Notes: generated by a model not told the origin, from the sequence alone. A DNA stretch of 64,000 nucleotides from a virus (IMGVR_UViG_3300005330_000015:32001-96000); one strand, 5' to 3'; positions 5,781 to 58,431 are shown, numbered from the stretch's first letter. A program made the numbers and translations.

Positions 5781-6037
5781 GCGCGAAGCTCCGCACCCCA
5801 TGGCAAACGAAACGTTTACGCCGCCCGGCGGCATCCGTTACCGTTCTCATACTCGAGGAGCACGCCGGTAAATGGCGCCCGGTGGTCGAGCGCCACTCGA
5901 ACTGCCGCGGTACCGACCCGCACGATGGATGCGTGGTGATGCAGCGCTTCGTCGGTCCGGATGCCGCGTCGCGAAGCGAAGCAGAACGTTGGGCGCGCAG
6001 CGCAGAGGTCACGACCAAACCGAGGACCGTGCAATGA
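5777..6037 (+). CDS. hypothetical protein
   Basis: RBS, ATGA overlaps. Confidence 0.5.
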   Translation: MSAKLRTPWQTKRLRRPAASVTVLILEEHAGKWRPVVERHSNCRGTDPHDGCVVMQRFVGPDAASRSEAERWARSAEVTTKPRTVQ

Positions 6038-6303
6038 GCTCATCCAGCAAGCGAGGACCGCTCAGCAACCCCCGCCACCGGCGCAACGTCGCCACCGAGG
6101 CGTGCGATTTCTGCGGCGCCAAGGCTGGCAATCCATGCCGACGGCTACGGCTGCAATGGAACTTCGCCATCGGTAGCTACAAGCCGGTGATCGGCAGCCG
6201 GGTGCGCAAGGTCATAAGCAGCCGTGCGCACCGCTGGACTCAGGTCAGTAGTGACCAATCGTTGAAGCTCAGCAATAACTGCGGCATCAACGTGGTGCGC
6301 TAG
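6034..6303 (+). CDS. small Zn-finger protein (CxxCGAxAGxPC type)
   Basis: CDFCGAKAGNPC...H; overlaps convergent HEAT gene. Confidence 0.5.
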   Translation: MSSSSKRGPLSNPRHRRNVATEACDFCGAKAGNPCRRLRLQWNFAIGSYKPVIGSRVRKVISSRAHRWTQVSSDQSLKLSNNCGINVVR

Positions 6304-6534
6304 TCCATAGATAGCGCCTTCGCGGACGACTGGATCTGGGTGCTGTAGCAATCCGAGAAGGATCGGCATGACTTCCTTGGAGTCGCTGATACGACCGGCG
6401 ATTTCGGCAGCAAAAGTCAAATCCGAAATAGGTATCCCAGGTGAAAGCATCAGCCGTAGTAGCTGATTTGGATGCTCAAGAGCCAGATACTCTAATATTT
6501 CCTCGCAGAGCTGCCCATGGGTCTCTTCGTTCAT
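6145..6534 (-). CDS. HEAT-repeat protein
   Basis: LLQHPDPVVREGAIYGL and DLSPAVRTAAYDL HEAT motifs; AGGAG RBS. Confidence 0.75.
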   Translation of the reverse strand: MNEETHGQLCEEILEYLALEHPNQLLRLMLSPGIPISDLTFAAEIAGRISDSKEVMPILLGLLQHPDPVVREGAIYGLAHHVDAAVIAELQRLVTTDLSPAVRTAAYDLAHPAADHRLVATDGEVPLQP

Positions 6535-6542
6535 TGTGGCTC

Positions 6543-7169
6543 CTAGTTCTTGTCAGCATCGTCGATCGCGCTCTCCAGCTCCTCGTCAGGCACGTTCACT
6601 CCTAACGGTGCCTCGAGCTCCTTAAATACGCCGCGCTCCTCGGCCTCGGCAAGGAGCTCCATGCCCTTCAGGAAGGCTGCCAGAATATCAGGCGGCAGCA
6701 CGGTTTCGAGCTTCGCAAGCACGAGGTCAACCTTGAGCTCGACGTCGATGCCGATGGAGCCGGTGTGCGTGACCTTGAGCTCGCGAGGCGCCGCTGCTCC
6801 GGTTAGGCGCGCGATCTCCTTGCTAGCTTGGATCACGCGTCCACGAAGCGCGGCGGTGCCCTGGTAGTCCTTGTTCTTTGCCGCATCGCGCGCCAGCTCC
6901 TCGGTCTGGTCGGCCACACGAGCCAGCCGGATCGCCTCCTGCTCACGCACGGCAACCAGGTCGGTGAACTCTAGCCCAATGAGCTTGCGTGCCGCAGCGA
7001 TGTCCTGCTGGGCCGTCGAGAAGTGCACCCCGAACCGGTTGACGATGGCCCTCTCCGTCTTCGAGTAGGTCCACTTGCGAAGGCACTTGGCCGCGAACTC
7101 GATTCTCGCCGGATCACGGGTTAGCCGATTACCCTTGGCACTGAGGACAGTTACGCGCTTTGACGCCAT
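6543..7169 (-). CDS. terminase small subunit-like protein
   Basis: N-terminal HTH (FGVHFSTAQQDI), two long helices, IARLTGAAAPRELKVTHTG like the AKLLGLDAP TerS pattern. Confidence 0.5.
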   Translation of the reverse strand: MASKRVTVLSAKGNRLTRDPARIEFAAKCLRKWTYSKTERAIVNRFGVHFSTAQQDIAAARKLIGLEFTDLVAVREQEAIRLARVADQTEELARDAAKNKDYQGTAALRGRVIQASKEIARLTGAAAPRELKVTHTGSIGIDVELKVDLVLAKLETVLPPDILAAFLKGMELLAEAEERGVFKELEAPLGVNVPDEELESAIDDADKN

Positions 7170-7172
7170 ACG

Positions 7173-7448
7173 TCACCGGTCATGTCCGGAGCATCGATCC
7201 CGCATGTCGCGGATCATGGCTTCGAAAATCGAAGCATATACCTCTGCCGGATCGTTCACTGAGACATGATGGCACATCTGCTTGACGCTGTCACCTCGCT
7301 CGTGCGGACCAGGTTGCTCGTGTATGACACGCGGGAGTAGACGCAGGTCTAGGCCAAGCAGGTCACGTTGGTAGCCTGCCAGCCCAGTCGGGCGTCCTCG
7401 CGATGCGCATCGCTCGTAACCGTGCCGAATACGTTCGGGTAACGTCAT
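7173..7448 (-). CDS. hypothetical protein
   Basis: GGAGGT RBS before ATG 7448. Confidence 0.45.
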   Translation of the reverse strand: MTLPERIRHGYERCASRGRPTGLAGYQRDLLGLDLRLLPRVIHEQPGPHERGDSVKQMCHHVSVNDPAEVYASIFEAMIRDMRDRCSGHDR

Positions 7449-7464
7449 AACCTCCCACATTCGT

Positions 7465-7521
7465 AGTGTCGACGTCGGTGTCGACGTTACCGACGACAAC
7501 TCGTGCACATGATGAGCACAT
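7465..7521 (-). repeat. 57-bp intergenic repeat copy 1 (putative promoter/operator)
   Basis: 53/57 identical to 12053-12109. Confidence 0.85.
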
Positions 7522-7547
7522 CTTGTGCTCACGAGCCACTGCAGCGT

Positions 7548-7820
7548 TCAGTTGGCCTTGCGCGCTCGCCTGGTCGCTTCCTGCTCGATTGCCGCCCTAT
7601 GCTCCTCGCTCATCCACAGGTTAGGTACGCACCAGGGATCCGCTCCGGACTCTCTGATCTTGGCCATCGCCCACTCGATGTACCGTTGACGTTCAACCAC
7701 AGGTAGCTCGTTGAACATCTGATCGCGGAACACCACGAACCAGACCGCGTTCCAGTTATCGCCATGCTCGATCGCGCTGTGGATGCGCGCGGTGAGTTCC
7801 TTGATATCGTCAGCGGTCAT
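7548..7820 (-). CDS. hypothetical protein
   Basis: RBS, ATGA overlap. Confidence 0.6.
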   Translation of the reverse strand: MTADDIKELTARIHSAIEHGDNWNAVWFVVFRDQMFNELPVVERQRYIEWAMAKIRESGADPWCVPNLWMSEEHRAAIEQEATRRARKAN

Positions 7821-14006: not shown

Positions 14007-14272
14007 CGTGTCATCGCCATGGCAAGAGTTGCACGCGCCAACATGCGAACGGCCCGATCGTATCGGTGGTGGCCAAGCGGAAACGACTCCGGCGTCTGCG
14101 TCCATCCAGCAGTGATGCGCCACGCGAGCCACTCTGCCTGCGCGTCGATCTCATCGTCTGGCAGACCCTCCAGCGAACCAGTGAGGGAGCCGTGGAGCGT
14201 TTCGCAGACACCGAGCACGCTACGCGCAAAGCGATCGTCCGACGTGAACGTTATAGGCGCTCCATCGCTCAT
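14003..14272 (-). CDS. hypothetical protein
   Basis: chained overlaps. Confidence 0.55.
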   Translation of the reverse strand: MSDGAPITFTSDDRFARSVLGVCETLHGSLTGSLEGLPDDEIDAQAEWLAWRITAGWTQTPESFPLGHHRYDRAVRMLARATLAMAMTR

Positions 14273-15315
14273 TTGAGCTTAGACTCTTCAGCAGAGATGA
14301 GACGCTTCTCTTCTTCGGAAGGCTCACCTCCGGTCTCGGGCTTGGCGCCCTTCAGGTCAGCCTTGAGCCCAGCAACGCCCTTGCCGTTACCCACTCCAGT
14401 GCGCTGCGTCGGCTTATCGGTCGGCTTGCCAGCCTCGCGCTCCGCCATGGCTTCCTTGAGCGCATCGGCCCATGACGTCTCTCCATCACGAATCGCTGCA
14501 TAGAGCCCGCGCAGATCATCGAGCTCGGCGGGGCTGAGCGTGTCTGTGCTGTGCCCGAGCCACTCGGCAAGCGCCGCAGGCTTCACACCAATATTGGCGA
14601 ACGCATCAAACAGCTTGTTGCGCGCTGCTGCCGGGTCAGCCGCATCAGCGTTTCTGCTTACCTCCTTACAGAGCTTCTTAGCCTCGTCCTGCAGGTGCCC
14701 TGGGATGATGCGCAAGATGCCGGTTCGGCTCGCCTTGCTAATCTCAGCGTTCTGCTTCGTGCGCACGTCATCATCGGAGGCTTCAACGATGAACACACGA
14801 TCTCCATACGAGTTAGTCCGCTCACCGAGCGGCGTCTGGCCACGCTTGAGCTGCTTGCGCTCGACCGTCTTATTCACGGTGATGTCCGTCTTCCACGTGC
14901 TATTTCGCTCGAAATCGATGACGCGAACGCGGATGCATCGCACCCTGTCATCGTCGTATACGGTCTCGCTAGACGCCTCCATATTACCCATGCACCGCAT
15001 GGCGACTTCAGCAAACCGGATCGAAAGCCCTTCAATCTTCTTGTCTCCGCGCGGCAAGCTATAGATCGCCACCGCAGCGAAACCAGGCCGCTTGCACTCG
15101 GCAATGAGGTCTTGTCGAACCTGATCAAGATTGCGCGGGAAGCGCTTTGCCATGATGCACGCAGCTTGCACCTCAGCCTGGCTCTTGGCCACCATGGCCT
15201 CAACCACGCCATTTTGCGTCGCGATACTCGTGCCACCGAAATCCTGCCGCACGACTTGGTTGTCAGCGCGCGGCACAGTGAGCGCGCCCACCGGTTCTTG
15301 ATCATAACCTTCCAT
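14269..15315 (-). CDS. putative single-strand annealing protein (partner of YqaJ exonuclease)
   Basis: AKRFPRN...YSLPRGDKKIEGLSIRFAE...GN family, directly downstream of exonuclease; function inferred from synteny. Confidence 0.6.
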   Translation of the reverse strand: MEGYDQEPVGALTVPRADNQVVRQDFGGTSIATQNGVVEAMVAKSQAEVQAACIMAKRFPRNLDQVRQDLIAECKRPGFAAVAIYSLPRGDKKIEGLSIRFAEVAMRCMGNMEASSETVYDDDRVRCIRVRVIDFERNSTWKTDITVNKTVERKQLKRGQTPLGERTNSYGDRVFIVEASDDDVRTKQNAEISKASRTGILRIIPGHLQDEAKKLCKEVSRNADAADPAAARNKLFDAFANIGVKPAALAEWLGHSTDTLSPAELDDLRGLYAAIRDGETSWADALKEAMAEREAGKPTDKPTQRTGVGNGKGVAGLKADLKGAKPETGGEPSEEEKRLISAEESKLK

Positions 15316-16420
15316 CTGCTTTGCCTTCCTGTTTCTTGGTAGCGTTCCATGCGTACGGCCACCGCATCGGGCGATCACCGTCAATTTGCGACGAATACGC
15401 CGCATCGGTACGTGCAGCGATTTCCTCGAGCGTGATGTTCATCCCTTCGATAAGCAGGAGCATTTCGGCGCGCTCAAGGCCGCCGGCAAGCGCTTTCCGA
15501 ACCTCGTCACCACGCGCGGACAGCATCAGCCTAGCATCGGTCCGCGCATCATTGGCGATCCCAACGTAGTCGACCACCGTGCTAGGTTTGTTTCGCTTCC
15601 AGGTTAGCTTGAGCTGCTTGCCGTCGTCGCCACGCCATGTGAGTCCAGCGTTGTCGCCGATGCGAAGCTTGAGCGCTTGCCCGAGCTTCGCCAACTCGGT
15701 TTCGAGAGTCGCCGCATCGGAGCGCATAGACCGTCCGCGCTGGATCATAGCGAGCAGTTCGCGATCGTCGTCGATGTCGATGAGCACGTCGCCATTGGTC
15801 TTGTGTCGTGACGTGAGCCACGTATCGAAGCTATCTGAGCCATCAGGCTCCGGGATCGCGCCGCCACGCACATTGTCCACGAGAAAGCGATGACATCGCT
15901 CTTTGAGCATGCCGATAGCTTCCTCGTCTCGCTCGATAACGTAGTCGCGCGGCTGGTTATCGATGAAAGCGACCACATCCCACCAGCGCAGCCCGGTCAC
16001 AGCAAGGCACCACATAGCCTGTGTCAGAACATACACCGGAATATCGTCCGTGCCTGGCTCGCCGTACTTGTGAGCTAGACGAACGGTGTGACACTTTATC
16101 TCGAGCCCTCGCTCCGGGCTCGACATTCGCCACCCTACTCCATCGGGTGAGCACAGCATCCACTCGTCAACCGGATGAGAAAGTGTGCCAGGGATCTCCA
16201 CTCGTAGCCCGGTTCGCTCCTCGTAGTCGGCGCGGATCACGGGCTCCAGAAGCGTTCCCCACTTGGTGCGCGAGTTGCCGCTGAACGAAGGGGCATCGCC
16301 GCGTTTCTCGCGCCACACGTCGATGATCGAGCGATCGGGATGCTTACCGACGATCGCGGCGACCTCGGATGCCGACACACCGATTCGGCGCTGCATAAGC
16401 TGGTCAGGCGTGAGGCTCAC
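15302..16420 (-). CDS. YqaJ-like viral recombinase exonuclease
   Basis: RRIGVSASEVAAI, WGTLLEP, SPDG, LEIKC, Q-WCL motifs; GTGA start at 16420. Confidence 0.92.
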   Translation of the reverse strand: MSLTPDQLMQRRIGVSASEVAAIVGKHPDRSIIDVWREKRGDAPSFSGNSRTKWGTLLEPVIRADYEERTGLRVEIPGTLSHPVDEWMLCSPDGVGWRMSSPERGLEIKCHTVRLAHKYGEPGTDDIPVYVLTQAMWCLAVTGLRWWDVVAFIDNQPRDYVIERDEEAIGMLKERCHRFLVDNVRGGAIPEPDGSDSFDTWLTSRHKTNGDVLIDIDDDRELLAMIQRGRSMRSDAATLETELAKLGQALKLRIGDNAGLTWRGDDGKQLKLTWKRNKPSTVVDYVGIANDARTDARLMLSARGDEVRKALAGGLERAEMLLLIEGMNITLEEIAARTDAAYSSQIDGDRPMRWPYAWNATKKQEGKADGRL

Positions 16421-16611
16421 GTCGTCGGCTCCAGCTTCCGCATCGGGCACGTCGGATACTGCGCATCGCTTCGTATCCAGCAGATCGCGCGAGCCCACTC
16501 TGGATTGAACATCCTAGAGGCACCGCAATTGGACTCAAACGTAGCAAGCTCAAGAAACCAGCGCTCGAGATCGTAGCCAGTGCACTTCGGACGTCCGCAT
16601 GTGCAGATCAT
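16417..16611 (-). CDS. hypothetical Cys-rich protein
   Basis: chained overlaps. Confidence 0.5.
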   Translation of the reverse strand: MICTCGRPKCTGYDLERWFLELATFESNCGASRMFNPEWARAICWIRSDAQYPTCPMRKLEPTT

Positions 16612-19904: not shown

Positions 19905-20326
19905 CGCCAGAAGAGCAGAACGTGGCGTATCCGATCATGGACTCGATCGCGTTGACACTGGGTCGCTACGTCTTCCGGCCTGCTACCGAGCATGCACTAC
20001 AAGCCCAGGTCGCGGACATCCTCACTCATGATCTCGCGACCAATAACCTGACAATCACGCGCGAAGTAGCAACCCCAGGCGGGCGTTACGACATCCTCGT
20101 TACGATCGACACCGGTAGAGCTCCGCTTAACATCGTGCTCGAGCTCAAGCTGTCCGCGTCGGCGCCTGCCGTCGAGCGCCAAGCGTCGCGGTACGCCGCA
20201 TCTACCGACGTCTCCGCCGTAATGGTCGTTACCACTTCACAGCGGCTCGCCAACGAGCTTCGGCGCGCCGGCTCCGACCAGCTCGGCGACAAGCCATTCG
20301 TGGTTTTTGCCTTGAGATCGTTCTGA
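19901..20326 (+). CDS. PD-(D/E)XK nuclease
   Basis: EHALQ..., GRYDIL...VLELK...QASRY. Confidence 0.7.
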   Translation: MTPEEQNVAYPIMDSIALTLGRYVFRPATEHALQAQVADILTHDLATNNLTITREVATPGGRYDILVTIDTGRAPLNIVLELKLSASAPAVERQASRYAASTDVSAVMVVTTSQRLANELRRAGSDQLGDKPFVVFALRSF

Positions 20327-22065
20327 TGTCAGCCGGAACGATCACCATCGAAGGCGGTATGTTTCGCGTCACGTGCGCGCCTCACGTCGCCATTAAGCTC
20401 CAACGCGTCTTCGCGGGATCGCACCGCATCGGGGCTGGCAAGTTCGCCGTCAAGGCGACGGCTGCCGCTGCTCACGAACTCGAGTGGTTCCGGAAACGCT
20501 ACCCGCTCGACGTCGATTCGTCTGTCATGCGCGACTACCACAACCTCGTGGCGCATGAGGAGCGCCGGCAAGCAACAATCGCAGAGGTCGGACGCGAAGG
20601 CTACGAGCCGCGACAGTTCGTGCTTGCTGAGCCGGCCCGGGAGTACCAGCGCGTGGCAGCCGACCTCGCTCTCAGAACTCGAGGGCTCCTAGTCGCGGAT
20701 GATGTTGGAACTGGAAAGACCTACACCGCGATCTGTACATTGACAGACGCCGGATCACTGCCCGCAGTTATAGTCACAATGACTCACCTGCCAGGCCAGT
20801 GGAAAGCGCAGCTCAATCGGTTCGCGCCCGCGCTGCGTGTCCACATCATCAAGACGGGGCAGGCGTACCGATTCGACAAGCCGCGCTTCGAGCTTGTCGA
20901 CGGCAAGCGCCGTAAGGTTTCCTATGTACCTGATGTAGTGATCTTGAACTACCACAAGCTCGTCGGTTGGTGCGATCAGCTGGCTGGCTTCGTTCGGTCT
21001 ATCGTGTTTGACGAGGTACAAGAATTGCGTCACGACGGAACTAATAAGTACAACGCCGCAAAGGCGCTAGCGGACGCCTGCGATCTACGCATCGCATTAT
21101 CCGCGACGCCTGTGTATAACCTGGGCGACGAGATCTGGCCGATCCTCAACGTAGTTGCACCGGACATCCTCGGTGGGAAGGAAGAATTTCTTCGCGAATG
21201 GTGCGTCGTCGACGGCCAGAAACACCGCGTGCGCGAGCCGGCCGCGCTTGGTACCTATCTTCGATCGACTGGCGTGATGATTCGCAGGACGCGCAAGGAG
21301 GTCGGCCGCGAACTTCCCGGACTTACCGTCGTCCGTCTACCAGTCGAGGTCGATCCTGGTCGCATCAACGAGGCCGTTCGATCAGTCGCCGAGCTGGCTA
21401 GCCGCGTGCTCGCGCGCACCGGCACCAACTTCGAGCTCATGAAGTGGTCCGGCGAGATCGACTGGCGCATGCGGCAGGCAACCGGCATCGGCAAGGCCGC
21501 TGCGGTCGTTGACCACGTCAGGTTGCTAGTTGAGGCTGGTGAGCGCGTCCTGCTTGGAGGGTGGCATCACGAAGTGTATTCGCTCTGGTGCTCGGCGTTC
21601 GATCGTCATGGGGTGACGTGGGCGAAGTACACAGGCGAGGAATCCGACGCAGATAAGACCGAGAGCGTGCGGCGCTTCTTGGCCGGCGATGCCTCTGTGT
21701 TGATCATGTCCCTGCGCTCTGGTGCAGGTCTCGACGGTCTACAGTCGGTATGCCACACCGTGGTGATTGGAGAGCTCGACTGGTCACCTAAGGTACACGA
21801 GCAGTTCATCGGACGCCCGTACAGGGACGGCCAGACCGAGACTGTGACCGCCTACTACTGCGTCGCCGATGAGGGCTCCGATCCCGTCATCGCTGATGTG
21901 CTCGGTATCAAGGACGCGCAATCGACCGGCATCGTCGATCCGGATGCCGCTGCGGCTCCGATGCTTGCTGGTTCGCAGACCGACACCATCCGCAAGCTGG
22001 CCGCTGACGTGCTGGCTCGTGCCGGGATCTCGCACCACACGCAGCCACTGGAGCTTGTTTTGTGA
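20326..22065 (+). CDS. SNF2-family helicase/translocase
   Basis: LVADDVGTGKT, DEVQ, LSATP, MIRR, GAGLDGL, QFIGRPYRDGQ. Confidence 0.93.
   Translation: MSAGTITIEGGMFRVTCAPHVAIKLQRVFAGSHRIGAGKFAVKATAAAAHELEWFRKRYPLDVDSSVMRDYHNLVAHEERRQATIAEVGREGYEPRQFVLAEPAREYQRVAADLALRTRGLLVADDVGTGKTYTAICTLTDAGSLPAVIVTMTHLPGQWKAQLNRFAPALRVHIIKTGQAYRFDKPRFELVDGKRRKVSYVPDVVILNYHKLVGWCDQLAGFVRSIVFDEVQELRHDGTNKYNAAKALADACDLRIALSATPVYNLGDEIWPILNVVAPDILGGKEEFLREWCVVDGQKHRVREPAALGTYLRSTGVMIRRTRKEVGRELPGLTVVRLPVEVDPGRINEAVRSVAELASRVLARTGTNFELMKWSGEIDWRMRQATGIGKAAAVVDHVRLLVEAGERVLLGGWHHEVYSLWCSAFDRHGVTWAKYTGEESDADKTESVRRFLAGDASVLIMSLRSGAGLDGLQSVCHTVVIGELDWSPKVHEQFIGRPYRDGQTETVTAYYCVADEGSDPVIADVLGIKDAQSTGIVDPDAAAAPMLAGSQTDTIRKLAADVLARAGISHHTQPLELVL

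Positions 22066-24018: not shown

Positions 24019-24026
<8 letters not shown>
23238..24026 (+). CDS. HNH endonuclease domain protein
   Basis: LRFEVFKRDSFTCQYCG...EHINPVSKGG...NLITSCWQCNSGK. Confidence 0.9.
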
Positions 24027-25148
<1,122 letters not shown>

Positions 25149-25152
<4 letters not shown>

Positions 25153-30987: not shown

Positions 30988-32091
30988 ATGAACATCGACC
31001 TCGATAAGATCGAAGCTTACGCGCGTAGCGCAGACGGCACAGGCGACCCAGCCTTGCTCGCGCTCGTGCGTGACGTGCGAGCTGGCGATGCTTCCGCAAA
31101 GCTCACGCTCGAGCATCGGCTTGCGGTGATGCACCTGTCCGGCGACGGCGTACTGCTAGCTACACATCCGATCCGCGAGCGCGCGCTAGCGTATGCTGAA
31201 CGCGAAGGCGTGGCGCAAAGCATGGACCGTCGCATCCGCGAAGCTTACGTTGCCGGCGCAAAGGAGACTACGGTGGAGCTTGGTGCTCGTACGCGCGAGC
31301 TCGAGGAAGTAACTACCAAGCGCGATGAGCTCGCTTTGCAGAATTCGGCCCTCATGGGAGAGGTCGCAAGAGCGTTGGATCGAATCGAGCAATCCGATCG
31401 TAGTTGGCGCGAAGCCGACGCCCAGTGTGAACGCCTTGCCGCTGAGAAGCTTTCTCTGACCTCGCAGCTTGCGGCGACGCGGAGCATGCATAGCGGACGG
31501 GAAGTGGAGGATCTTCGTCGGCAGCTACATGCGCTTCTCGCTATCAATGCGAAGCTAGAGGCCGACGCCGCGCAGCGCATACGGATGAGCCCAACAACTG
31601 ACGAGATCGCCACGCTACGGGAACGCAACGCCGAGCTGGAATCAGACCTCGCGAAGCTGAGCGCGCACACAAACGACGTCAGCGGTCGCCTCGTTGCAAT
31701 GACTGACGTCGCAGCGAAGTCCTCTACCGAGGCGAGCGCGGCCCTCGAGAGAGAGGGGCGCACCAACGCCGCACTCCGCGAGGCCTATGCTCGAATCGAG
31801 TGGCTCATCGGCGACGCCATAAACCATGACCGAACGCCTAGACGTGTTGCGACGCCTATCGCGAGCGGTATGGCGCCAGATCAGATCGCCGACCGTATTC
31901 GCATAGCACGTAAGGGACCCACGTGGAATGGACTCGAGCACCCGTTCGCCGTGGCCCTTGTGGCGCTGGCCGATCTCGTGATCGATGCGATGGTGTGCGA
32001 CGAACGGCTCATTCGGTTTGCTTGGCGTGCGAGAAATGATCCTAGCGAAGCAAGTTACTGGGTTTCTCTCTGCAAGGCGGTCGAGCCATGA
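30988..32091 (+). CDS. coiled-coil protein
   Basis: long heptad-rich region; GGAG RBS. Confidence 0.65.
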   Translation: MNIDLDKIEAYARSADGTGDPALLALVRDVRAGDASAKLTLEHRLAVMHLSGDGVLLATHPIRERALAYAEREGVAQSMDRRIREAYVAGAKETTVELGARTRELEEVTTKRDELALQNSALMGEVARALDRIEQSDRSWREADAQCERLAAEKLSLTSQLAATRSMHSGREVEDLRRQLHALLAINAKLEADAAQRIRMSPTTDEIATLRERNAELESDLAKLSAHTNDVSGRLVAMTDVAAKSSTEASAALEREGRTNAALREAYARIEWLIGDAINHDRTPRRVATPIASGMAPDQIADRIRIARKGPTWNGLEHPFAVALVALADLVIDAMVCDERLIRFAWRARNDPSEASYWVSLCKAVEP

Positions 32092-36688: not shown

Positions 36689-36871
36689 ATGATAAAACGT
36701 CGCAAGATAACCGGCCTCGCGCAACCTCGCGGGGCCGAGCCGAAGACTGACGAGATCAAGATGCGCGCGACCTCCGCGCTCAAGGCAAGCATCGAGGCCG
36801 AGGCTACTAATCGTCGGATGACCGTGAGCGCGTGGCTCACGTGGTTGATCGAGCGCGAGCTATCGCTCTAG
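36689..36871 (+). CDS. ribbon-helix-helix DNA-binding protein
   Basis: EIKMRATSALKASIEAEA...MTVSAWLTWLIERE. Confidence 0.65.
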   Translation: MIKRRKITGLAQPRGAEPKTDEIKMRATSALKASIEAEATNRRMTVSAWLTWLIERELSL

Positions 36872-37728
36872 GTGACGTCACGCCATCGCGGAAACCCGTG
36901 CCTGAGCATCGCGGCGACGCTTGCGGGACCGCATACGCCGTCAACTACGAGCGGGCGGAACGTGTTTCCTGCTTTCGCATCGAGCGCGTTTAGCCGCCCC
37001 TGGCGCTGCTTGCCCAGCTCGAGATCTTGCCCGGCGTCGAAGTCGAGCGGCTCCGATCCGGCGAGCTCAAGCAGGCGGAATAGCTCGTCGCCGGGGTCAC
37101 CGCGCCCACGTCGGCCGGTCTGATCGCGATGCCCAAGCACCCCAGCAATATCTGCGCCGGGCGACTGGACTCCGGCGACCTCGAGCCTGCGCATCGGCTG
37201 ACCGTTGTACGCGCGCCGGTGCTGAAACGGGATCGGGAACAACCCCGCGCCGGGTCGGCCACTCATTGTGATCGCGGCGATCAATGTGACCGTCGCTTCG
37301 AGCGTGGCCTGATAGATCGCGCCGTATGGTGTCGTACACATCTCAATCCCAATGCTGGTAGGATTGATCGCCTGCGCATGGTAGGTCTCGACGCGTGCGA
37401 GGTCAGCGGCGCAGTACACGACGCCGTCAAAGTCGACGACGATGTGCGCAGCGCTGGAAATGTGCTCACCGCCTCCACGGTCGCGACCGCGCCACATATC
37501 GAGGATGTCGAGCGCGTGACCGGCCGGGCCGGCACCTGCGATCACTGGCTGAGGCCATAATCCACCCGTTGTATGCGCGATCACCATCCGAACCCAGGTC
37601 GTCGGCCGTTGCCGGTAATCCTCTGGGCCTAGCTGGCATCGCTCTGGGCCGCCATGCGAGACGGGCGGCTCGACCTTTAGGCCGGCGATCGGTACCAGCA
37701 TGCCGTTAACGAGTAAACCGCCACTCAT
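36868..37728 (-). CDS. endolysin, N-acetylmuramoyl-L-alanine amidase (Amidase_2) with C-terminal PG-binding motif
   Basis: IAHTT, AAHIVVDFDG, YHA..IN..SIGIE, LGHRD, DPG; LVVDGVCGP. Confidence 0.88.
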   Translation of the reverse strand: MSGGLLVNGMLVPIAGLKVEPPVSHGGPERCQLGPEDYRQRPTTWVRMVIAHTTGGLWPQPVIAGAGPAGHALDILDMWRGRDRGGGEHISSAAHIVVDFDGVVYCAADLARVETYHAQAINPTSIGIEMCTTPYGAIYQATLEATVTLIAAITMSGRPGAGLFPIPFQHRRAYNGQPMRRLEVAGVQSPGADIAGVLGHRDQTGRRGRGDPGDELFRLLELAGSEPLDFDAGQDLELGKQRQGRLNALDAKAGNTFRPLVVDGVCGPASVAAMLRHGFPRWRDVT

Positions 37729-48641: not shown

Positions 48642-48714
48642 CAACGACTGCGCCAATGTGGCGCGATTTTTGACGCTATCTACCACGTAGAAACGCCATC
48701 TTACGTGGGCACGC
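48642..48714 (+). promoter_or_regulatory. conserved upstream element, copy 1
   Basis: aligns with 58913-58984; GCGCCA-N3-TGGCGC palindrome, TTGACG, CTTACG. Confidence 0.7.
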
Positions 48715-48734
48715 GACGAGCATAAGAGGAGACT

Positions 48735-49580
48735 ATGTCCAGCTTCGCGATCTCACCCTTCACCATGCCAGCTGCTCTTGCCGCGGCTGACGCCATTCTT
48801 AGCGATCCGACGTGGATCGCCAACACCGTCAATCCGGCGCAGGTTGCGTGGCTCGAGTCGTTTCGTCGCCGTGCCACGTTGGCCTTAACGATGCCGGAGA
48901 TCCACCATAACGCCACGTTCGATCCTGCGCAGCATGTCGCATGGCTCAAGGCCGAGGGCTGGGACGCACAAATCACCGGCGGTACCCCGCGAGACATCTT
49001 CCTTGCTGCAACCCTGAACATCGTCGCGAAGTGGAGCGAAGTCGGGCGCGCATATAAGGACGGGATAGTCGATCGCGCCATCGTTAAGGTCGGCGCGTGC
49101 ACGTCTGCGCAGCGGGGTGCCGAGCATCCGGTCGTCGAGGTGGAGACGCAGCACCTAGGCTTCACGTTTTGCTTTCAGCAGACCAATGCTGCTCCCTCGA
49201 GCCCGGATCACCTCGCTGCGATAGCCTATGATATTGCGACGAGGTCAGCCAACGAATCTGTCAGACTCGACGTGCCGATGGTCGATCTGCAAACACGTGA
49301 CGACGCCGCGTACATGATCGGGCTACGTTCGGGTCCGAACATCGTAACTCAAGCCGCCGAGCAGTTCCGCTTCGAACTCAACGAGGTCGGAGGTCGAGCA
49401 AGCGCGGCTTCCGAGATCGCGGTGACTAGGAGCATGGGCCCGCGCACGATCAAGATCAACGGCCCGTTCATCGTTGCCGTGAACCGTAACGGAGCGCCGA
49501 AGGATACTGACAAGGTGGTGTTCGCGGCCTTCTGCGACCGAGATTCGTGGCGAGCGCCCGCGGCAGGGAGGATCGTATGA
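48735..49580 (+). CDS. minimal serpin-like protease inhibitor
   Basis: AISPFTMPAALA (s6B/hB), IFLAATLNIVAKW (s3A), VRLDVPMVDL (s2C/s6A), FELNEVGGRASAASEIAVTRSM (hinge/RCL), IKINGPFIVAV (s1C/s4B); GAGGAG RBS. Confidence 0.72.
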   Translation: MSSFAISPFTMPAALAAADAILSDPTWIANTVNPAQVAWLESFRRRATLALTMPEIHHNATFDPAQHVAWLKAEGWDAQITGGTPRDIFLAATLNIVAKWSEVGRAYKDGIVDRAIVKVGACTSAQRGAEHPVVEVETQHLGFTFCFQQTNAAPSSPDHLAAIAYDIATRSANESVRLDVPMVDLQTRDDAAYMIGLRSGPNIVTQAAEQFRFELNEVGGRASAASEIAVTRSMGPRTIKINGPFIVAVNRNGAPKDTDKVVFAAFCDRDSWRAPAAGRIV

Positions 49581-50023
49581 CGACAGCGATCGAAGCTGCC
49601 ATGGTGCGACTACGCGCGCTGCAGGCGCGTTTGGCCGGTGCCCCCGAGTACACTGCGGAGCGCGCGGCCGCACGCTGCCCAGACGGCCCGCAGCGCGAGC
49701 ATCGAAACGCCTACCAGGCGGGCGCCCTAGAGCAGATCTGCCGGTCGTCGGCCGACGAGATCGCGTCGGTCATCCGCCAGATGGAGGACGGAGCTGTCCA
49801 GCGCCCGGCGACCGCGGAGACCCTGACCGATGAACAGATCAGGGACGCACGGTCCTCGTTCCGGGATGAAATCGAGGTCCTGATCGGCCTGGTCAAGGAC
49901 TGCGACGAGATGTTGGTGTTTCAAAAACGCCAGGATGTCGGACTACCGCAAACATTGCGCTGCGATGGGGCCCGCGAGCGTATCGCCGCTGCCATCAACG
50001 CCCGCGCGAAGGCGGTGCGGTGA
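49577..50023 (+). CDS. TDEQI/AINAR family protein with N-terminal extension
   Basis: TAETLTDEQIR...ARERIAAAINARAKAVR. Confidence 0.7.
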   Translation: MTTAIEAAMVRLRALQARLAGAPEYTAERAAARCPDGPQREHRNAYQAGALEQICRSSADEIASVIRQMEDGAVQRPATAETLTDEQIRDARSSFRDEIEVLIGLVKDCDEMLVFQKRQDVGLPQTLRCDGARERIAAAINARAKAVR

Positions 50024-51773: not shown

Positions 51774-54700
51774 TCACAGGGTCGGCGTCACCACGATCTG
51801 CAGGTTCGTGCCGTCCGGGAACGTCTGCGTCGCGCCGGACCCGTCGACCGCTGTGAAGTATCCGGCATACGTCCCGGGCACGTCGAGGTCGTGCGTTCCC
51901 CATGCGTACGTGAGGTTGCCAACCTCGTCTCCGATAGCCGGCCCAGTGATGCGCGTCGATCCCTGGACCATCAAGAACGCCACGCCGCCTGGGAACTCCT
52001 CAGGGAAGTTGATGCGGCGTGCGGCATTGAACGCGTTGGCTTCGAGTGGGCGATGGGTTGCACCTTGGCGGAAGGGCTCTGGCACGAGGTCTCCTGGGGC
52101 AGGGAGGATGATTACCGTGGCTGCGGTCGAGATGACCCGCACGCGGATCGGAAGCGGTAGCGGGGCGGCTGTGAAGCGCCCGAGCTCGTCCCATGATGGT
52201 GACCAGACTGTGTCGGTCACTGACCATGTGCCGCTCGACCATGAGACTTCGTCATCGGGTAGTCCAGCCGGCGGCGGAGGCGGCGGTGTCGGAACCTCGT
52301 CATCGATTGAGCCGGTCGCCTGCCCTATCGAAACCGACCAGTTGACCGCGAACGTCCACGCGACGTCATCGAGCACTTGAGCCGGGAACTCGTCGATGGG
52401 CGCCTGGGCAACGGGCTGATCGGTGACGCGAGCGAGCTGCCATGCAAACGTCGGCTCATCATCGCCAGGCGCGGGAATGGCGGTGGGAGATTCAGCGTCC
52501 GCTAACGCAGAGAGTAGCGTCGGGACAGGCAATGACATTACTTGAGCGGTGGATGTTTCGTCCGGCGCCGCTTGTGCCGCAAGCTCAATGTCTTGCGCGA
52601 TGCTAGCCGAGCTGGTAGCCGACACGAGCTGCAATTCCGCAGTGGAGTTCGCGTCGTCAGAAGCAGAAACGAGTGCTACCAAATCGGTATCCGATACGCT
52701 AGCCGCCACGGTAGCGGCGACGGTAAGCGTCGCTGAGCCATTGCTCTCGTCGTCGAGTGCTGAATGCGTTGGGAGTTCTTCCTGACTCGCAGATGTCGTG
52801 CTGTCGGTCGCGGGTGCTGTGAACAGTATCGGAGCCTGGTCCGCATCGAACTCCAAGGTCACTATCTCATCGTTGGCTGCGGTCGTCGCAAAGATCGGCG
52901 GTTGCGCGAACATCACGACCGGTGCGTAAGGCTCAGCATCGAGTGCCGAACCGGTGCCGCTTGGATCTTCAAACGCGACCGTGACGAGCTGTGCTCCCTC
53001 ATTGGTCGGCGAGGACGTCCAGACCTCGGCAAACGTACCCGGGTTGGCGAACCGGAACGCAACCATATGCTGGATGTATCCATTTACCGTCAGCGATAGC
53101 GGCGCGGTCGCATTGGCGATCAACGTAAGACCGCCAGCCGGCGTCGCTGCATCGGGTGAACCGGCCGCCACCACCGTTCCGTTGCCGTACCAGAACGACA
53201 AGATCAGACAACGCTTCGTCGTCGTAATGGGCGCGGCCGTGACGGTGCCGCCGGACGGTGAGGCTCGCTCGACATGGGAGAACGCATGCGGTGCGCCGAC
53301 CACGACACCGCGGAGTTCGATCCATGCGGCTGATAGCTCGTCGCCGGCCCCGCTTGATCCACCGAACTGCGCCGAGATGGTGTAGTTGGTTTTAGCGTTG
53401 CTCGCGGTCGTGCGTCGCCATACGCCAGCGAACGAGGCCGTGAAGCTCGCGTAGGCGTTGTTGGTGATGACCGAGAACGTGCCGCCATCGTTGTCGGTAG
53501 GATCGATCGCGCCGCCTGGGGTCTGCGACTGATTCCCACGCATGACCGTCGCGATGATCTGTGAGCCGGCGATCGTGTCGGTACCCGAGACAGGCCCCAC
53601 CACGTACCAGGTCACACCACCATCGGTCTGCGTGGAGCCCAGCGTTGTTGCATTAGGCCCGGTGCCAGAGCTAGAGCTCGTGCCGCCGCTCGCGCATTGG
53701 TAGAGAATGCCGCCGTTCTTGACGCGGTTGATGCCGCCGGCCGTGGGGTCCACGACGTAGGCCGTGCTCTGCGCCCACGACGGGATCGGCGCTACGGTGG
53801 TCAGTGTCCCACTCTGGGGCGGCGCCTCGAAAGAGCGCTGGACGTCGCTGGCGCCGCCTACCGCGGCGGAAACGGCGGCGATAGGTAGCTCATCTACCGG
53901 TGCCGTGAGCGGCAATTGTGCGAGATTGAAGCGTAGCGCGACGTCTAACCACGGCGTGTCGTCCATCGTGATTGGAGGGATCGATCCGTTAGGCTCGTCA
54001 CTCTCGCCGAATGCCGCGATAGCTACGGTCGATGGCGCCACAAGCGCAAGCATCGTCGCGGGCTCGTCATCTTGCGTAGCTATTGGTCCGGTACTGGGTA
54101 GCGTATCGGGTAAGTCACCGACCGCGATCCATGTCAGCGGCGCCTCAAGCGAGGAGGATCGCTGGTCATCGTCAACGACGCTTGCAACGCCGCTTGGAAG
54201 CGTGTCGTGTGCTTCGTTCGAAGCCCACGCCGAGCTCGACCAGCCGAGAGATGCGTTCGCCTGATCGTCATCAACGATCGACGCAGATAGCGCGATAGGT
54301 AGCTCGTCGCAGAACTGGAACACTATCCCACTGGTAGGTGAAGCCATCCACCCGACAAAGGAGTCAACGTCATCCCTGATCGTCGCCGCCGCGATCGGGA
54401 TCTCCTCCTGCGCAGGCGTTGCGATCAGCAGCGGGGCCGGCGCAGAAAGTCCTCCGACCATCGACACTGCGTCGTCAGGAGAACCAACCTCTGGCAGTGA
54501 CGCCAGCACGAGCGTGATCTGCGCCTGCTTCGTGCTTGCGCCGAAGCTCGACGTTCCGCTTCGTGAACCACCCGCCGTCGCATAACCCGCACGACCGCCA
54601 CAGAACGATGCGCCGTTGCCGGTCGAGCCATGCCACCCGTTATCGAGCTGGCCAGTTGGATTCGCGGAGCCCGCGAACGTCCACGCGTTGAACGCGCTGT

Positions 54701-55199
54701 CGTCGTTGGCGCTCGCTACGCATGTTATGAGCGTGCAGCCGTTCAGCGTCGGCGTGACAGCTGGCGGTGCGATCGTTGTCGTGGCCGTGGTGACAACCGC
54801 GGTCGCAAGCAGATGGATGGGGTTACCTGTGTTCCGACAGCCACGATACGTGTTGATATGCAGCGTCTGGATCGTGCCGCCCCACGTGCTTGCAGCAGCT
54901 ACCACCGGCGCCGGATCGGTCGCCGTCGTCGAACCGATCAAGCGCTTCACGAAGATGGTGATCGCGCAATCGTTCGCACCGCTCACGCCACCATTAGTGG
55001 TAGCGCTCGCGGTATTGCCGTGCACATCCGTAGCGAGCACGAACCCATTGGGCGTACTGAGCGTCGGCACGCCGCCGTCGGTCGCGATGAATAACAAGGC
55101 GACGTCGTCAGCTTGCCACGCCGTCGGCATGAACACCGTCGTAGGACCGGCGCCCTGCTGATCGAACGTTGATTCGTCTTGAAAATCGGGGTTCGCCAT
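51774..55199 (-). CDS. large virion fibre/appendage protein with acidic repeats, carbohydrate-binding-like module and C-terminal BppU-like domain
   Basis: T/S/G/A-rich beta domains; WAQSTAY...LYQCASGGTS...DGGVTW; C-terminal RQGAT...LTYAW...DLDVPGTY...QTFP. Confidence 0.7.
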   Translation of the reverse strand: MANPDFQDESTFDQQGAGPTTVFMPTAWQADDVALLFIATDGGVPTLSTPNGFVLATDVHGNTASATTNGGVSGANDCAITIFVKRLIGSTTATDPAPVVAAASTWGGTIQTLHINTYRGCRNTGNPIHLLATAVVTTATTTIAPPAVTPTLNGCTLITCVASANDDSAFNAWTFAGSANPTGQLDNGWHGSTGNGASFCGGRAGYATAGGSRSGTSSFGASTKQAQITLVLASLPEVGSPDDAVSMVGGLSAPAPLLIATPAQEEIPIAAATIRDDVDSFVGWMASPTSGIVFQFCDELPIALSASIVDDDQANASLGWSSSAWASNEAHDTLPSGVASVVDDDQRSSSLEAPLTWIAVGDLPDTLPSTGPIATQDDEPATMLALVAPSTVAIAAFGESDEPNGSIPPITMDDTPWLDVALRFNLAQLPLTAPVDELPIAAVSAAVGGASDVQRSFEAPPQSGTLTTVAPIPSWAQSTAYVVDPTAGGINRVKNGGILYQCASGGTSSSSGTGPNATTLGSTQTDGGVTWYVVGPVSGTDTIAGSQIIATVMRGNQSQTPGGAIDPTDNDGGTFSVITNNAYASFTASFAGVWRRTTASNAKTNYTISAQFGGSSGAGDELSAAWIELRGVVVGAPHAFSHVERASPSGGTVTAAPITTTKRCLILSFWYGNGTVVAAGSPDAATPAGGLTLIANATAPLSLTVNGYIQHMVAFRFANPGTFAEVWTSSPTNEGAQLVTVAFEDPSGTGSALDAEPYAPVVMFAQPPIFATTAANDEIVTLEFDADQAPILFTAPATDSTTSASQEELPTHSALDDESNGSATLTVAATVAASVSDTDLVALVSASDDANSTAELQLVSATSSASIAQDIELAAQAAPDETSTAQVMSLPVPTLLSALADAESPTAIPAPGDDEPTFAWQLARVTDQPVAQAPIDEFPAQVLDDVAWTFAVNWSVSIGQATGSIDDEVPTPPPPPPAGLPDDEVSWSSGTWSVTDTVWSPSWDELGRFTAAPLPLPIRVRVISTAATVIILPAPGDLVPEPFRQGATHRPLEANAFNAARRINFPEEFPGGVAFLMVQGSTRITGPAIGDEVGNLTYAWGTHDLDVPGTYAGYFTAVDGSGATQTFPDGTNLQIVVTPTL

Positions 55200-55221
55200 G
55201 GGCACGCCCCAGCGTCAGCGG

Positions 55222-57147: not shown

Positions 57148-57593
57148 CGCGGTGCACTGGTCACTGCTGCAAGGCGTTCTGCTTACCGTTTTCGCCACAA
57201 GCGTTACGCGCACGCCTTGACGAAGACCGTGCCGGCGAGAAAGCACGTGGGGAAGTCGATGGTTCGTCAGGTTTGTGGGACGAGGAGCAGATCTACGCGA
57301 TGATCGTCTACCTCGGAGAGTTCACACCGCTTGAGGCCATGACGAAGTTCTGTACCCGCGTACCCGACGGCAACGAGGAGCCCAGCGGGCACTATTATAC
57401 GTGCAATAACCTAGCAGCAGACGGCAACTGCTCGATCTACGAGGCGCGGCCACATATGTGTCGCGACTATCCGTACGGCGAGCCTTGTCGCTATCAGAAG
57501 TGCACAGCGGAGCACCGAGGCGAACATTTCGAGCAGTCGAAGAAGCGGCGTCTTTCGCTGTTCATCGGAGACAAGGTGCCATCAGATGGCTGA
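57144..57593 (+). CDS. YkgJ-family (CxxCxxCC) Zn/Fe-S cluster protein
   Basis: CTGHCC...CNNL...CSIYEARPHMCRDYP. Confidence 0.8.
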   Translation: MTRCTGHCCKAFCLPFSPQALRARLDEDRAGEKARGEVDGSSGLWDEEQIYAMIVYLGEFTPLEAMTKFCTRVPDGNEEPSGHYYTCNNLAADGNCSIYEARPHMCRDYPYGEPCRYQKCTAEHRGEHFEQSKKRRLSLFIGDKVPSDG

Positions 57594-58431
57594 CGCGGCG
57601 ACCGGCATACAAGCCCGGCCGATCGTAAAATGGGCCGGCGGGAAGACCAAGCTCCTGCCCGAACTACTCGCGCGCATGCCTGATAAGTTCGGGCGCTACT
57701 ACGAGCCGTTTGCGGGAGGCGCAGCGCTGTTCTTGCGAGTGGCACCGAAACGCGCCGTGCTAGGCGATGCCAACGCTGATTTGATCGCGTGCTACCGCAC
57801 CATCGGCACTGATTGCGACGCCGTGCTTGACCTGCTTCGGTGGCACGCGGTTCGTCATGCACGCGACCACTATTTGGACATCCGGCGCGCATGGAACACG
57901 GATTCAATCAAGGGATGGCATCCTCCGGCTCGCGCTGCAGCACTCATCTACTTGCTGAAGACCAACTTCAATGGGCTCTGGCGCGTCAACCGGGCCGGAA
58001 AGTTCAATGTGGGCTGGGGCAAGCATAAGCGCTATACGCCTGACGTCGATGGACTGCGCGCCGCGTCCGCCGCGCTTGCTCGCGCCACCTTGCGGACCGG
58101 CGATTACCGCGCCACCGTGGCCGATGCGCGCCGCGGTGACTTCGTCTATTTTGATCCGCCGTACGACCGGACGTTCACGGGCTACACCGCAAGATCGTTC
58201 GGCCCCGAACAACAGCGCGAGCTCGCCGAGACACTACGGAAGCTCGTCGCGCGCGGCTGTAGTGTCATGCTGTCGAACAGCGATACGAAGCTGATCCGGT
58301 CGCTTTATAAGGGGCTCCGGATCTACCGCGTGAAGTGCCCGCGCGCGATCAACTCTAACGGCGCCGGCCGTGGCGAGGTCAACGAGGTTATCATCACCGG
58401 TGGCTACGAACCGCCAAGGAGAAAGCGATGA
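57586..58431 (+). CDS. dam: DNA adenine methylase (Dam/D12 class)
   Basis: KWAGGK, YYEPFAGGAA, FNGLWRVN..GKFN, YFDPPY, MLSNS. Confidence 0.93.
   Translation: MADAATGIQARPIVKWAGGKTKLLPELLARMPDKFGRYYEPFAGGAALFLRVAPKRAVLGDANADLIACYRTIGTDCDAVLDLLRWHAVRHARDHYLDIRRAWNTDSIKGWHPPARAAALIYLLKTNFNGLWRVNRAGKFNVGWGKHKRYTPDVDGLRAASAALARATLRTGDYRATVADARRGDFVYFDPPYDRTFTGYTARSFGPEQQRELAETLRKLVARGCSVMLSNSDTKLIRSLYKGLRIYRVKCPRAINSNGAGRGEVNEVIITGGYEPPRRKR

Follow-up and report, generated by a model that had tools for sequence, protein, structure and literature searches.

A truncated serpin-fold gene in a phage genome

The window analysed here, a 64,000-nucleotide stretch of DNA (IMGVR_UViG_3300005330_000015:32001-96000), is the part from base 32001 to base 96000 of an IMG/VR virus record that measures 119,072 bp and has a completeness rating of 100%. 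We examined one gene in it and found that it encodes a short member of the serpin superfamily in which the three-sheet core is retained together with a hinge of the inhibitory type and a reactive-centre loop. The open reading frame (ORF) of this 281-aa serpin-fold protein was confirmed at 48735-49580 on the forward strand, with its stop codon inside that span. An initial annotation, made from the sequence alone, had listed five serpin landmarks in this ORF, and all of them were recovered in the same order: AISPFTMPAALA (residues 5-16), IFLAATLNIVAKW (88-100), VRLDVPMVDL (175-184), FELNEVGGRASAASEIAVTRSM (213-234) and IKINGPFIVAV (239-249). The gene and the features that flank it are as follows.

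48735-49580, forward strand: truncated serpin-fold gene (281 aa), supported by the ORF and its translation, a family profile, AlphaFold2 (AF2) models and VIA-align structural alignment
48724-48731, forward strand: Shine-Dalgarno sequence AAGAGGAG, read directly from the DNA, ending 3 nt before the serpin ATG
48649-48672, forward strand: terminator-like hairpin (48649-48665) and T-run at the end of the upstream gene, from a consensus scan; a weak site, as shuffled sequence yields about one of its kind
48683-48708, forward strand: inverted repeat CCACGTA-N12-TACGTGG with 7-bp arms, occurring once in the window, with none expected in shuffles
49577-50023, forward strand: 148-aa downstream ORF beginning with an ATG that shares bases with the serpin stop codon (ATGA), in the same frame as a GTG start at 49547

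The open frame measures 284 amino acids, with just three in-frame codons 5′ of the start before a stop is met, and homologues begin at the same position with a conserved N-terminus. Because the upstream stop is so close and the homologues start at the same place, the short N-terminus is genuine and not the result of a mis-called start. The Shine-Dalgarno sequence agrees with the strong ribosome-binding site described earlier, while the suggestion that the gene has an upstream element of its own was upheld in part: the 98-bp intergenic gap 5′ of the gene holds the hairpin and the unique inverted repeat, a possible operator, but a consensus scan of the gap revealed no sigma-70-like promoter. The serpin gene and the 148-aa ORF are possibly translationally coupled, given how their start and stop codons overlap; no homologue of this ORF stood beside the serpin gene in the other loci examined. 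The serpin gene itself belongs to a series of small ORFs on the same strand, which contains no structural genes and includes an ORF for an excisionase/helix-turn-helix-like protein.

Homology to the serpin superfamily

When the single protein was compared with the Pfam Serpin profile (PF00079), residues 200-252 matched profile positions 302-356 with an E value of 0.004 and 16.9 bits, below the gathering cut-off of 27 bits. The matched region corresponds to strand s5A, the hinge, the loop and strand s4B. The best sequence match of the single protein in the PDB was PAI-1, at E 0.013. A word-indexed search returned 82 relatives of near-equal length with identities down to 38%, none of which had a Pfam assignment, and an exhaustive HMMER search gave 381 cluster representatives at E<=0.001, most of them 270-300 aa long. 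PF00079 was matched at E<1 by 62 of 74 close homologues, through the same hit as in the query, and one distant family member reached the gathering score with 27.8 bits.

Two alignments were used, one of the close family and a wide one of 128 diverse members. The profile of the wide alignment matched 119 distinct solved serpin sequences in the PDB at E<0.01, PAI-1 being the best at 7.6e-11. At the level of sequence comparison, this profile and the matches of the close homologues to PF00079 are significant and establish the homology of the 281-aa protein to serpins.

Predicted fold and missing elements

AF2 was run on both alignments. The model from the close-family alignment (model 1) had a predicted local distance difference test score (pLDDT) of 88.3 and a predicted template-modelling score (pTM) of 0.77; that from the wide alignment (model 2) was the better, with pLDDT 90.7 and pTM 0.87. 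The top 50 PDB chains listed by Foldseek were all serpins (probability 1.00, E ~1e-9). VIA-align superposed model 1 on serpins with Z 14.4 and a root-mean-square deviation of 3.0 Å over 217 residues, and model 2 with Z 16.5 and 3.2 Å over 246 residues; across the serpin alignments of both models, Z ranged from 14 to 16.5 over 217-250 residues. In the predicted structures, then, the three-β-sheet serpin fold with a central sheet A is present, which is what the initial annotation had proposed to look for. The elements that define it map to the gene as follows.

48747-48800, forward strand: strand s6B and helix B (residues 5-22, AISPFTMPAALAAADAIL), where the chain begins, from aligned ranges and the conserved N-terminus
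48954-48995, forward strand: linker without helix or strand (residues 74-87) in the place of s1A and helix F, from DSSP of both AF2 models
48996-49034, forward strand: strand s3A (residues 88-100), ending in Trp100, a strand in both models
49338-49379, forward strand: strand s5A running into the hinge (residues 202-215), from the AF2 models and the HMMER alignment to PAI-1 s5A
49449-49469, forward strand: candidate strand s1C and the GPF motif entering s4B (residues 239-245, IKINGPF), from model 2

Both models give the same order of elements, with helix B at 10-22, a long helix at 34-51, s2A at 56-61 and helix E at 64-73, followed by a 14-residue irregular linker and then s3A at 88-100 (strand from 88 or 89); the assignment is based on secondary-structure order and aligned ranges and is not a residue-by-residue map. 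Since model residue 1 pairs with residue 47 in antitrypsin numbering, the modelled chain starts at strand s6B (AISPF) and helix A is absent from it. Serpins carry s1A and helix F where linker 74-87 stands, and by the same models both elements are absent as well. The single helix 34-51 occupies the place of the serpin helices hC and hD. The full canonical helix set hA-hI is thus not present, and about 90 canonical core residues between s6B and P1 have no counterpart, model residues 1-233 being aligned with 221 of 312 target residues.

The remaining core carries strongly conserved positions. Trp100 is shared by all of 74 sequences and by 90% or more of 128, and we place it at the breach tryptophan of serpins; Gly243, Pro244 and Phe245 are invariant in the 74. 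Collectively, the homology, the predicted fold and the viral record sustain the earlier description of a phage-encoded minimal serpin, one that is smaller than the poxvirus serpin CrmA and is without helices A and F.

Hinge and reactive-centre loop

The region between strand s5A and the GPF motif comprises two segments of opposite character.

49383-49430, forward strand: P side of the loop (residues 217-232, EVGGRASAASEIAVTR), of constant length 16
49431-49448, forward strand: hypervariable P′ segment (residues 233-238, SMGPRT), with insertions and deletions, entropy 2.13

The sequence runs from the hinge Glu217 to Arg232, passes through Ser233 and Met234 at the head of the P′ segment, and continues with IKINGPF, in which the proline is residue 244. 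Its alignment to PAI-1 from the hinge Glu to the PF motif is free of gaps and puts Ser233-Met234 on the Arg-Met scissile bond of PAI-1, which makes it P1-P1′; Arg232 is the sixteenth residue counted from the hinge Glu. The initial annotation had offered Ser-Met and Arg-Ser as the two candidate bonds on the same count, which our analysis reproduces.

The stretch that starts at Glu217 and ends with Arg232 has a length of exactly 16 residues in 73 of the 74 close sequences and in 124 of the 128 in the wide family. The hinge has an entropy of 0.46 against a protein mean of 1.32 and is among the most conserved segments, whereas residues 233-238 have the highest entropy of the segments scored, and the spacing from Arg232 to Pro244 varies from 10 to 14 residues in the close family and from 10 to 17 in the wide one. 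Arg232 is present in 72 of 74 phage-clade sequences and in 87 of 128 in the wide family, where the residues seen at this position are R, C, V, E, K, S, T or L, variation of the kind expected of a specificity residue. In working inhibitory serpins one expects the P side to be constant, the specificity residue to vary and the P′ side to be free. The loop variability that the initial annotation had asked about is therefore seen in this form: a constant P side, a hypervariable P′ side, and a P1 that varies across the wider family.

Small residues dominate the hinge. In the wide family P15 is Gly in 98%, P14 is Ala or Gly, P12 is Ala and P9 is Ala in 82%, the last conserved although it would face outward in an inserted strand. 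This small-residue pattern is typical of inhibitory serpins, and the protein has both of their hinge features, small uncharged residues from P15 to P9 and a P side of 16-17 residues from the P17 Glu; Gly at P14 and Arg at P13 are atypical, yet small or outward-facing. Residues 239-243, the candidate s1C, show a strand-like conservation pattern.

The two models differ in the state of the loop. In model 1, residues 219-232 form a confident inserted strand (pLDDT ~92) hairpinned to s5A, and the return at 233-244 is poorly defined; this model resembles the latent or cleaved state, and cleaved serpins head its structural matches. In model 2, residues 224-233 are disordered (pLDDT<50) and only 219-222 form a strand, while a high-confidence strand at 237-240 takes the s1C position together with a high-confidence C-terminus, so that in this model the loop is exposed, as in a native-like state. 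Which of the two loop states is populated is beyond what AlphaFold can say, and to judge from the pair of models the sequence is evidently compatible with both the inserted and the exposed state, as the serpin mechanism requires.

Phage setting and distribution of the family

A sequencing-run search found the phage DNA in rhizosphere metagenomes, among which the source sample is probably included; no RNA run was listed as carrying the sequence. The window encodes a RecE-like exonuclease, an SNF2 helicase, a DnaD-like loader, an amidase, a Dam-type methylase and a tail-fibre-related protein, and the following were located.

14269-16498, reverse strand: RecE-like exonuclease with its phrog_3657 partner
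20326-22065, forward strand: SNF2-family helicase
24019-25152, forward strand: DnaD-like helicase loader
36868-37728, reverse strand: Amidase_2 endolysin
57586-58431, forward strand: D12-class N6-adenine methyltransferase

Convergent with the serpin block is a 1143-aa ORF (51774-55205, reverse strand) that abounds in Ala/Thr/Ser/Asp repeats and was matched by neither Pfam nor PHROGs; from its sequence, it may encode a tail fibre or other surface protein.

Relatives of the serpin gene generally occur singly, as stand-alone genes surrounded by small phage ORFs; their viral contigs measure 26-461 kb, and most exceed 100 kb. Close relatives lie in similar small-gene arrays on viral or phage-like contigs of 118, 37, 65, 461, 152 and 202 kb. 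A scan of viral contigs with a sub-alignment placed a more distant clade on IMG/VR contigs of 26, 152, 304, 435 and 447 kb, with R, C or L at the P1-equivalent position. On six very large phage-like contigs (152, 461, 202 and three of 304-447 kb) the short serpin genes sit in long same-strand arrays of small hypothetical genes. No conserved neighbour of the serpin gene emerged when all ORFs of five related loci were compared with the window by BLAST. One related locus shares the RecE-like, phrog_3657 and amidase genes with the window in a different arrangement. A 64%-identical copy of the protein is encoded on a contig of a Xanthobacteraceae metagenome-assembled genome (MAG) that also carries homologues of the recombination and lysis genes of the phage, and these sequence matches hint that Xanthobacteraceae is the host family.

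Some members reside in bacterial chromosomes, one of them on an 840-kb contig between DnaJ-domain and RuvC genes. Among ESM Atlas neighbours we found unnamed clusters from Bacteroidota, Myxococcota, Planctomycetota and Uroviricota, in two of which 17-21% of members carry Pfam Serpin. In 301 Myxococcota genomes the profile matched full-length serpins at their C-terminal part only, and the short family was present in one genome. A Haliangiales MAG has a tandem pair of short serpin-like genes (5932-7808 of the locus examined, on a 588,833-bp contig) that adjoins an aldehyde ferredoxin oxidoreductase gene near an IS200-like transposase; 3′ of the pair are three ORFs of 328-371 aa, two without a Pfam hit and one with a sub-threshold collagen-repeat hit. 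Seven family members of 359-377 aa have a conserved N-terminal extension of about 90 residues with the pattern ERY..K..H.GP.R......V.EW, which has no Pfam match, and in others the extensions are unrelated and 130-300 residues long; signal peptides are present in a few. At 17 and ~185 bp 5′ of two distant bacterial members lies a same-strand ORF of 406-407 aa without a Pfam family, which on sequence grounds may be a conserved partner in bacterial loci.

None of Pfam, NCBIfam, PHROGs and PADLOC gives this short family a name. PHROGs returned nothing better than an insignificant match for the 281-aa protein (E 0.16), and neither the defence models of PADLOC nor NCBIfam matched any of ten family members. 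In cultured phages, a tblastn search of 50,697 GenBank phage records with three family members found no match. No phage protein in BFVD matched the model, the first phage rows having a probability of 0.03 or less; the BFVD matches are serpins of poxviruses, giant viruses, baculoviruses and iridoviruses. PDB 9hbk, labelled 'superinfection exclusion protein', was considered as a phage lead and rejected, as it occurs in poxvirus entry-fusion-complex papers; we take it to be the poxvirus K2/SPI-3 serpin. A literature search on phage serpins, anti-defence serpins and phage serpin inhibitors returned incidental mentions only, and no article that describes a bacteriophage serpin. The short serpins are an undescribed branch of the serpin superfamily, with a reduced architecture, in large phages and some bacteria.

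Comparison with known serpins

With the inhibitory serpins of PF00079 the phage protein shares the three-sheet fold, the order of elements from s6B-hB through s3A to s5A-hinge-loop-s1C-s4B-s5B, the hinge pattern E-x-G-small-x-A-x-A-A and the GPF/PF motif entering s4B. Its spacing from hinge to PF is identical to that of PAI-1, its best sequence match, without a gap. It differs in its length (281 against ~370-400 aa), in being without helix A and s1A/helix F, in having probably one helix for hC and hD, in its P14 Gly, and in being phage-encoded and, as predicted, cytoplasmic.

CrmA (SPI-2; PDB 1f0c/1c8o), to which the initial annotation had likened the protein, is a cross-class inhibitor of caspase-family cysteine proteases, and this is the basis of the proposed analogy. 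It has a 16-residue P side and retains helix F. Like the phage protein it is virus-encoded and shortened, and it matched the predicted fold with Z 13.8-13.9. It has been called one of the smallest serpins (PMC5889911). At 341 aa it is nevertheless 60 residues longer than the phage protein, acts in an animal cell, and has Asp at P1, where the phage protein has Arg232 or Ser233. With 8-10% identity it is no closer than other serpins, being one among dozens of equal fold matches. The likeness to CrmA accordingly holds as an analogy between two shortened serpins of viruses, which possibly share a 16-residue P side; no particular kinship of the two was found, and P1 differs.

A precedent for an Arg-P1 serpin acting on a clan CD protease inside the cell comes from plants, where AtSerpin1 is a suicide inhibitor of the Arg/Lys-specific metacaspase 9 (AtMC9), as cited in a passage of PMC2064784. 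AtSerpin1 is a full-length serpin, and the pairing of the phage protein with such a target is hypothetical. Full-length prokaryotic serpins (thermopin, 1mtp; tengpin, 2pef; miropin, 5nct; chloropin, 8gxv) matched the fold with Z 14-15 and share a bacterial origin with the wider short family; they measure ~320-370 residues in solved structures. Their helix set is complete, and most of them are secreted or located at the surface.

A proposed trap for an arginine-specific host protease

We propose that the 281-aa protein acts in the cytoplasm, where its loop would trap an Arg-specific protease of the host, plausibly one that serves in defence, and put the chance that this is right at slightly under even. 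In this scheme a host protease would attack the exposed loop at Arg232-Ser233, leaving a 16-residue P side, or at Ser233-Met234, and the acyl intermediate would be trapped as the loop inserts into sheet A and becomes strand s4A. Inhibition, cleavage site, target class and counter-defence role are all things that we infer. An Arg-specific target, which might be trypsin-like or caspase/metacaspase-like (clan CD), is suggested because sequences of the phage clade almost invariably have Arg at the P1/P2 position. Cytoplasmic action is expected, given that the protein lacks a signal peptide and that its N-terminus takes part in the fold. The phage genome gave no match to Trypsin_2, Peptidase_C14 or Peptidase_S8, so any target is probably a protease of the host. 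Encoded by a stand-alone accessory gene of large phages, the protein would most likely serve to neutralise a host protease that otherwise aborts the infection. Taken alone, this counter-defence role is a tentative assignment and, in our estimate, rather unlikely.

Proteases of the kind envisaged occur in bacterial immunity. The caspase-like protease of type IV Thoeris strictly requires Arg at P1 and slightly prefers small non-polar neighbours, and the PCaspase of type III-B CRISPR is described as promiscuous, with cleavage possibly following arginine (bioRxiv 10.1101/2024.10.24.620036). Around the candidate P1 the phage loop reads A-V-T-R-S/G. Peptidase_C14 was detected in 43 of 61 sampled Xanthobacteraceae genomes, one of which had as many as 38 matches. 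A Peptidase_C14 protein of more than 800 aa, from the MAG with the 64%-identical homologue, was considered as a target and rejected on account of its N-terminal signal or transmembrane segment. The most specific form of the proposal is that the family constitutes the smallest class of serpins (~280 aa, without helices A and F) and a working trap against Arg-specific abortive-infection proteases, and so the prokaryotic counterpart of CrmA; with it, large and jumbo phages would disarm proteases such as the caspase-like effectors found in type IV Thoeris and type III CRISPR, or the gasdermin activators of the trypsin- or caspase-like kind. We consider this form doubtful.

Several observations weigh against a protease trap. 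Helix F contributes to the metastability of serpins and to controlled loop insertion, and it is missing here along with s1A; deletion of helix F in PAI-1 reportedly gave substrate behaviour. P14 is Gly or Ala and not Thr or Ser. Model 1 depicts an uncleaved chain that is already loop-inserted, a latent-like form that would be inactive, and a strand of fixed length with small inward-facing residues is also what a permanent s4A member of the sheet would show. The PADLOC null result counts on the same side, as does the one caspase-family protease examined in the candidate host MAG, which has a signal peptide and is thus not a cytoplasmic target.

Several of these points fit the strongest alternative, a non-inhibitory serpin-fold protein. 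Ovalbumin, HSP47 and the hormone-binding serpins are proteins of that type. Here the chain, being without helix F, would fold directly into the loop-inserted six-stranded form or relax to it, and would serve a binding, scaffolding or chaperone-like role. Such serpins are established (PMC5889911), and the confident inserted strand that AF2 predicts for an uncleaved chain on the close alignment, the absence of helices A and F, and the Gly or Ala at P14 are all consistent with one. Against it, the hinge retains the inhibitory small-residue pattern down to the outward-facing Ala at P9; residues 239-243, which the inserted model shows as a floppy linker, have strand-like conservation and form s1C in the better model; and column 232 behaves like a specificity residue in its variation, with a hypervariable stretch right after it. 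On this balance we judge a non-inhibitory protein unlikely, while giving it appreciable weight.

If the protein does inhibit, its target might lie outside immunity: a housekeeping or stress protease by which the host degrades phage proteins, or a protease that belongs to a rival phage or mobile element. The structural evidence for a trap would serve equally well here, phages do inhibit housekeeping proteases (T4 PinA acts on Lon), and family members occur in bacterial chromosomes outside any obvious phage context. What makes such a target quite improbable is that the chambers of Lon, ClpP, HslV and FtsH are gated and closed to the loop of a folded 31-kDa serpin, that prohead proteases act inside procapsids, and that no protease gene was linked to the serpin gene in any locus examined.

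A further possibility is a decoy substrate or sensor, whose Arg loop would be cut in competition with other substrates or to trigger a downstream event, with no stable acyl-enzyme complex. The better model shows the loop as exposed and disordered, and loss of helix F is said to go with substrate-like behaviour of PAI-1; yet a simple decoy has no need of a conserved Ala-rich hinge or an exactly fixed P side, and a stoichiometric decoy would be a poor defence against a promiscuous protease, which leaves this reading with a small probability. Finally, a chance or compositional resemblance to serpins in a high-GC ORF, which the sub-threshold Pfam hit of the single sequence and the many overlapping spurious ORFs of the GC-rich window might bring to mind, is excluded by the near-length homologues and cluster representatives, the profile match to PAI-1 and two confident models that align with serpins.

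Implications

Should the protein turn out not to be inhibitory, the family would still be a widespread, undescribed serpin-fold branch of large phages and bacteria. If it is inhibitory, a serpin trap would be workable without helices A and F, which would bear on the long-standing question of what elements make serpins metastable and provide a minimal scaffold for study and engineering. In that case bacterial immunity executed by proteases of the caspase-like, CHAT and trypsin-like types would be countered by the same protein family that poxviruses use against caspases, and a parallel in the arms race between viruses and their hosts would extend across domains of life.

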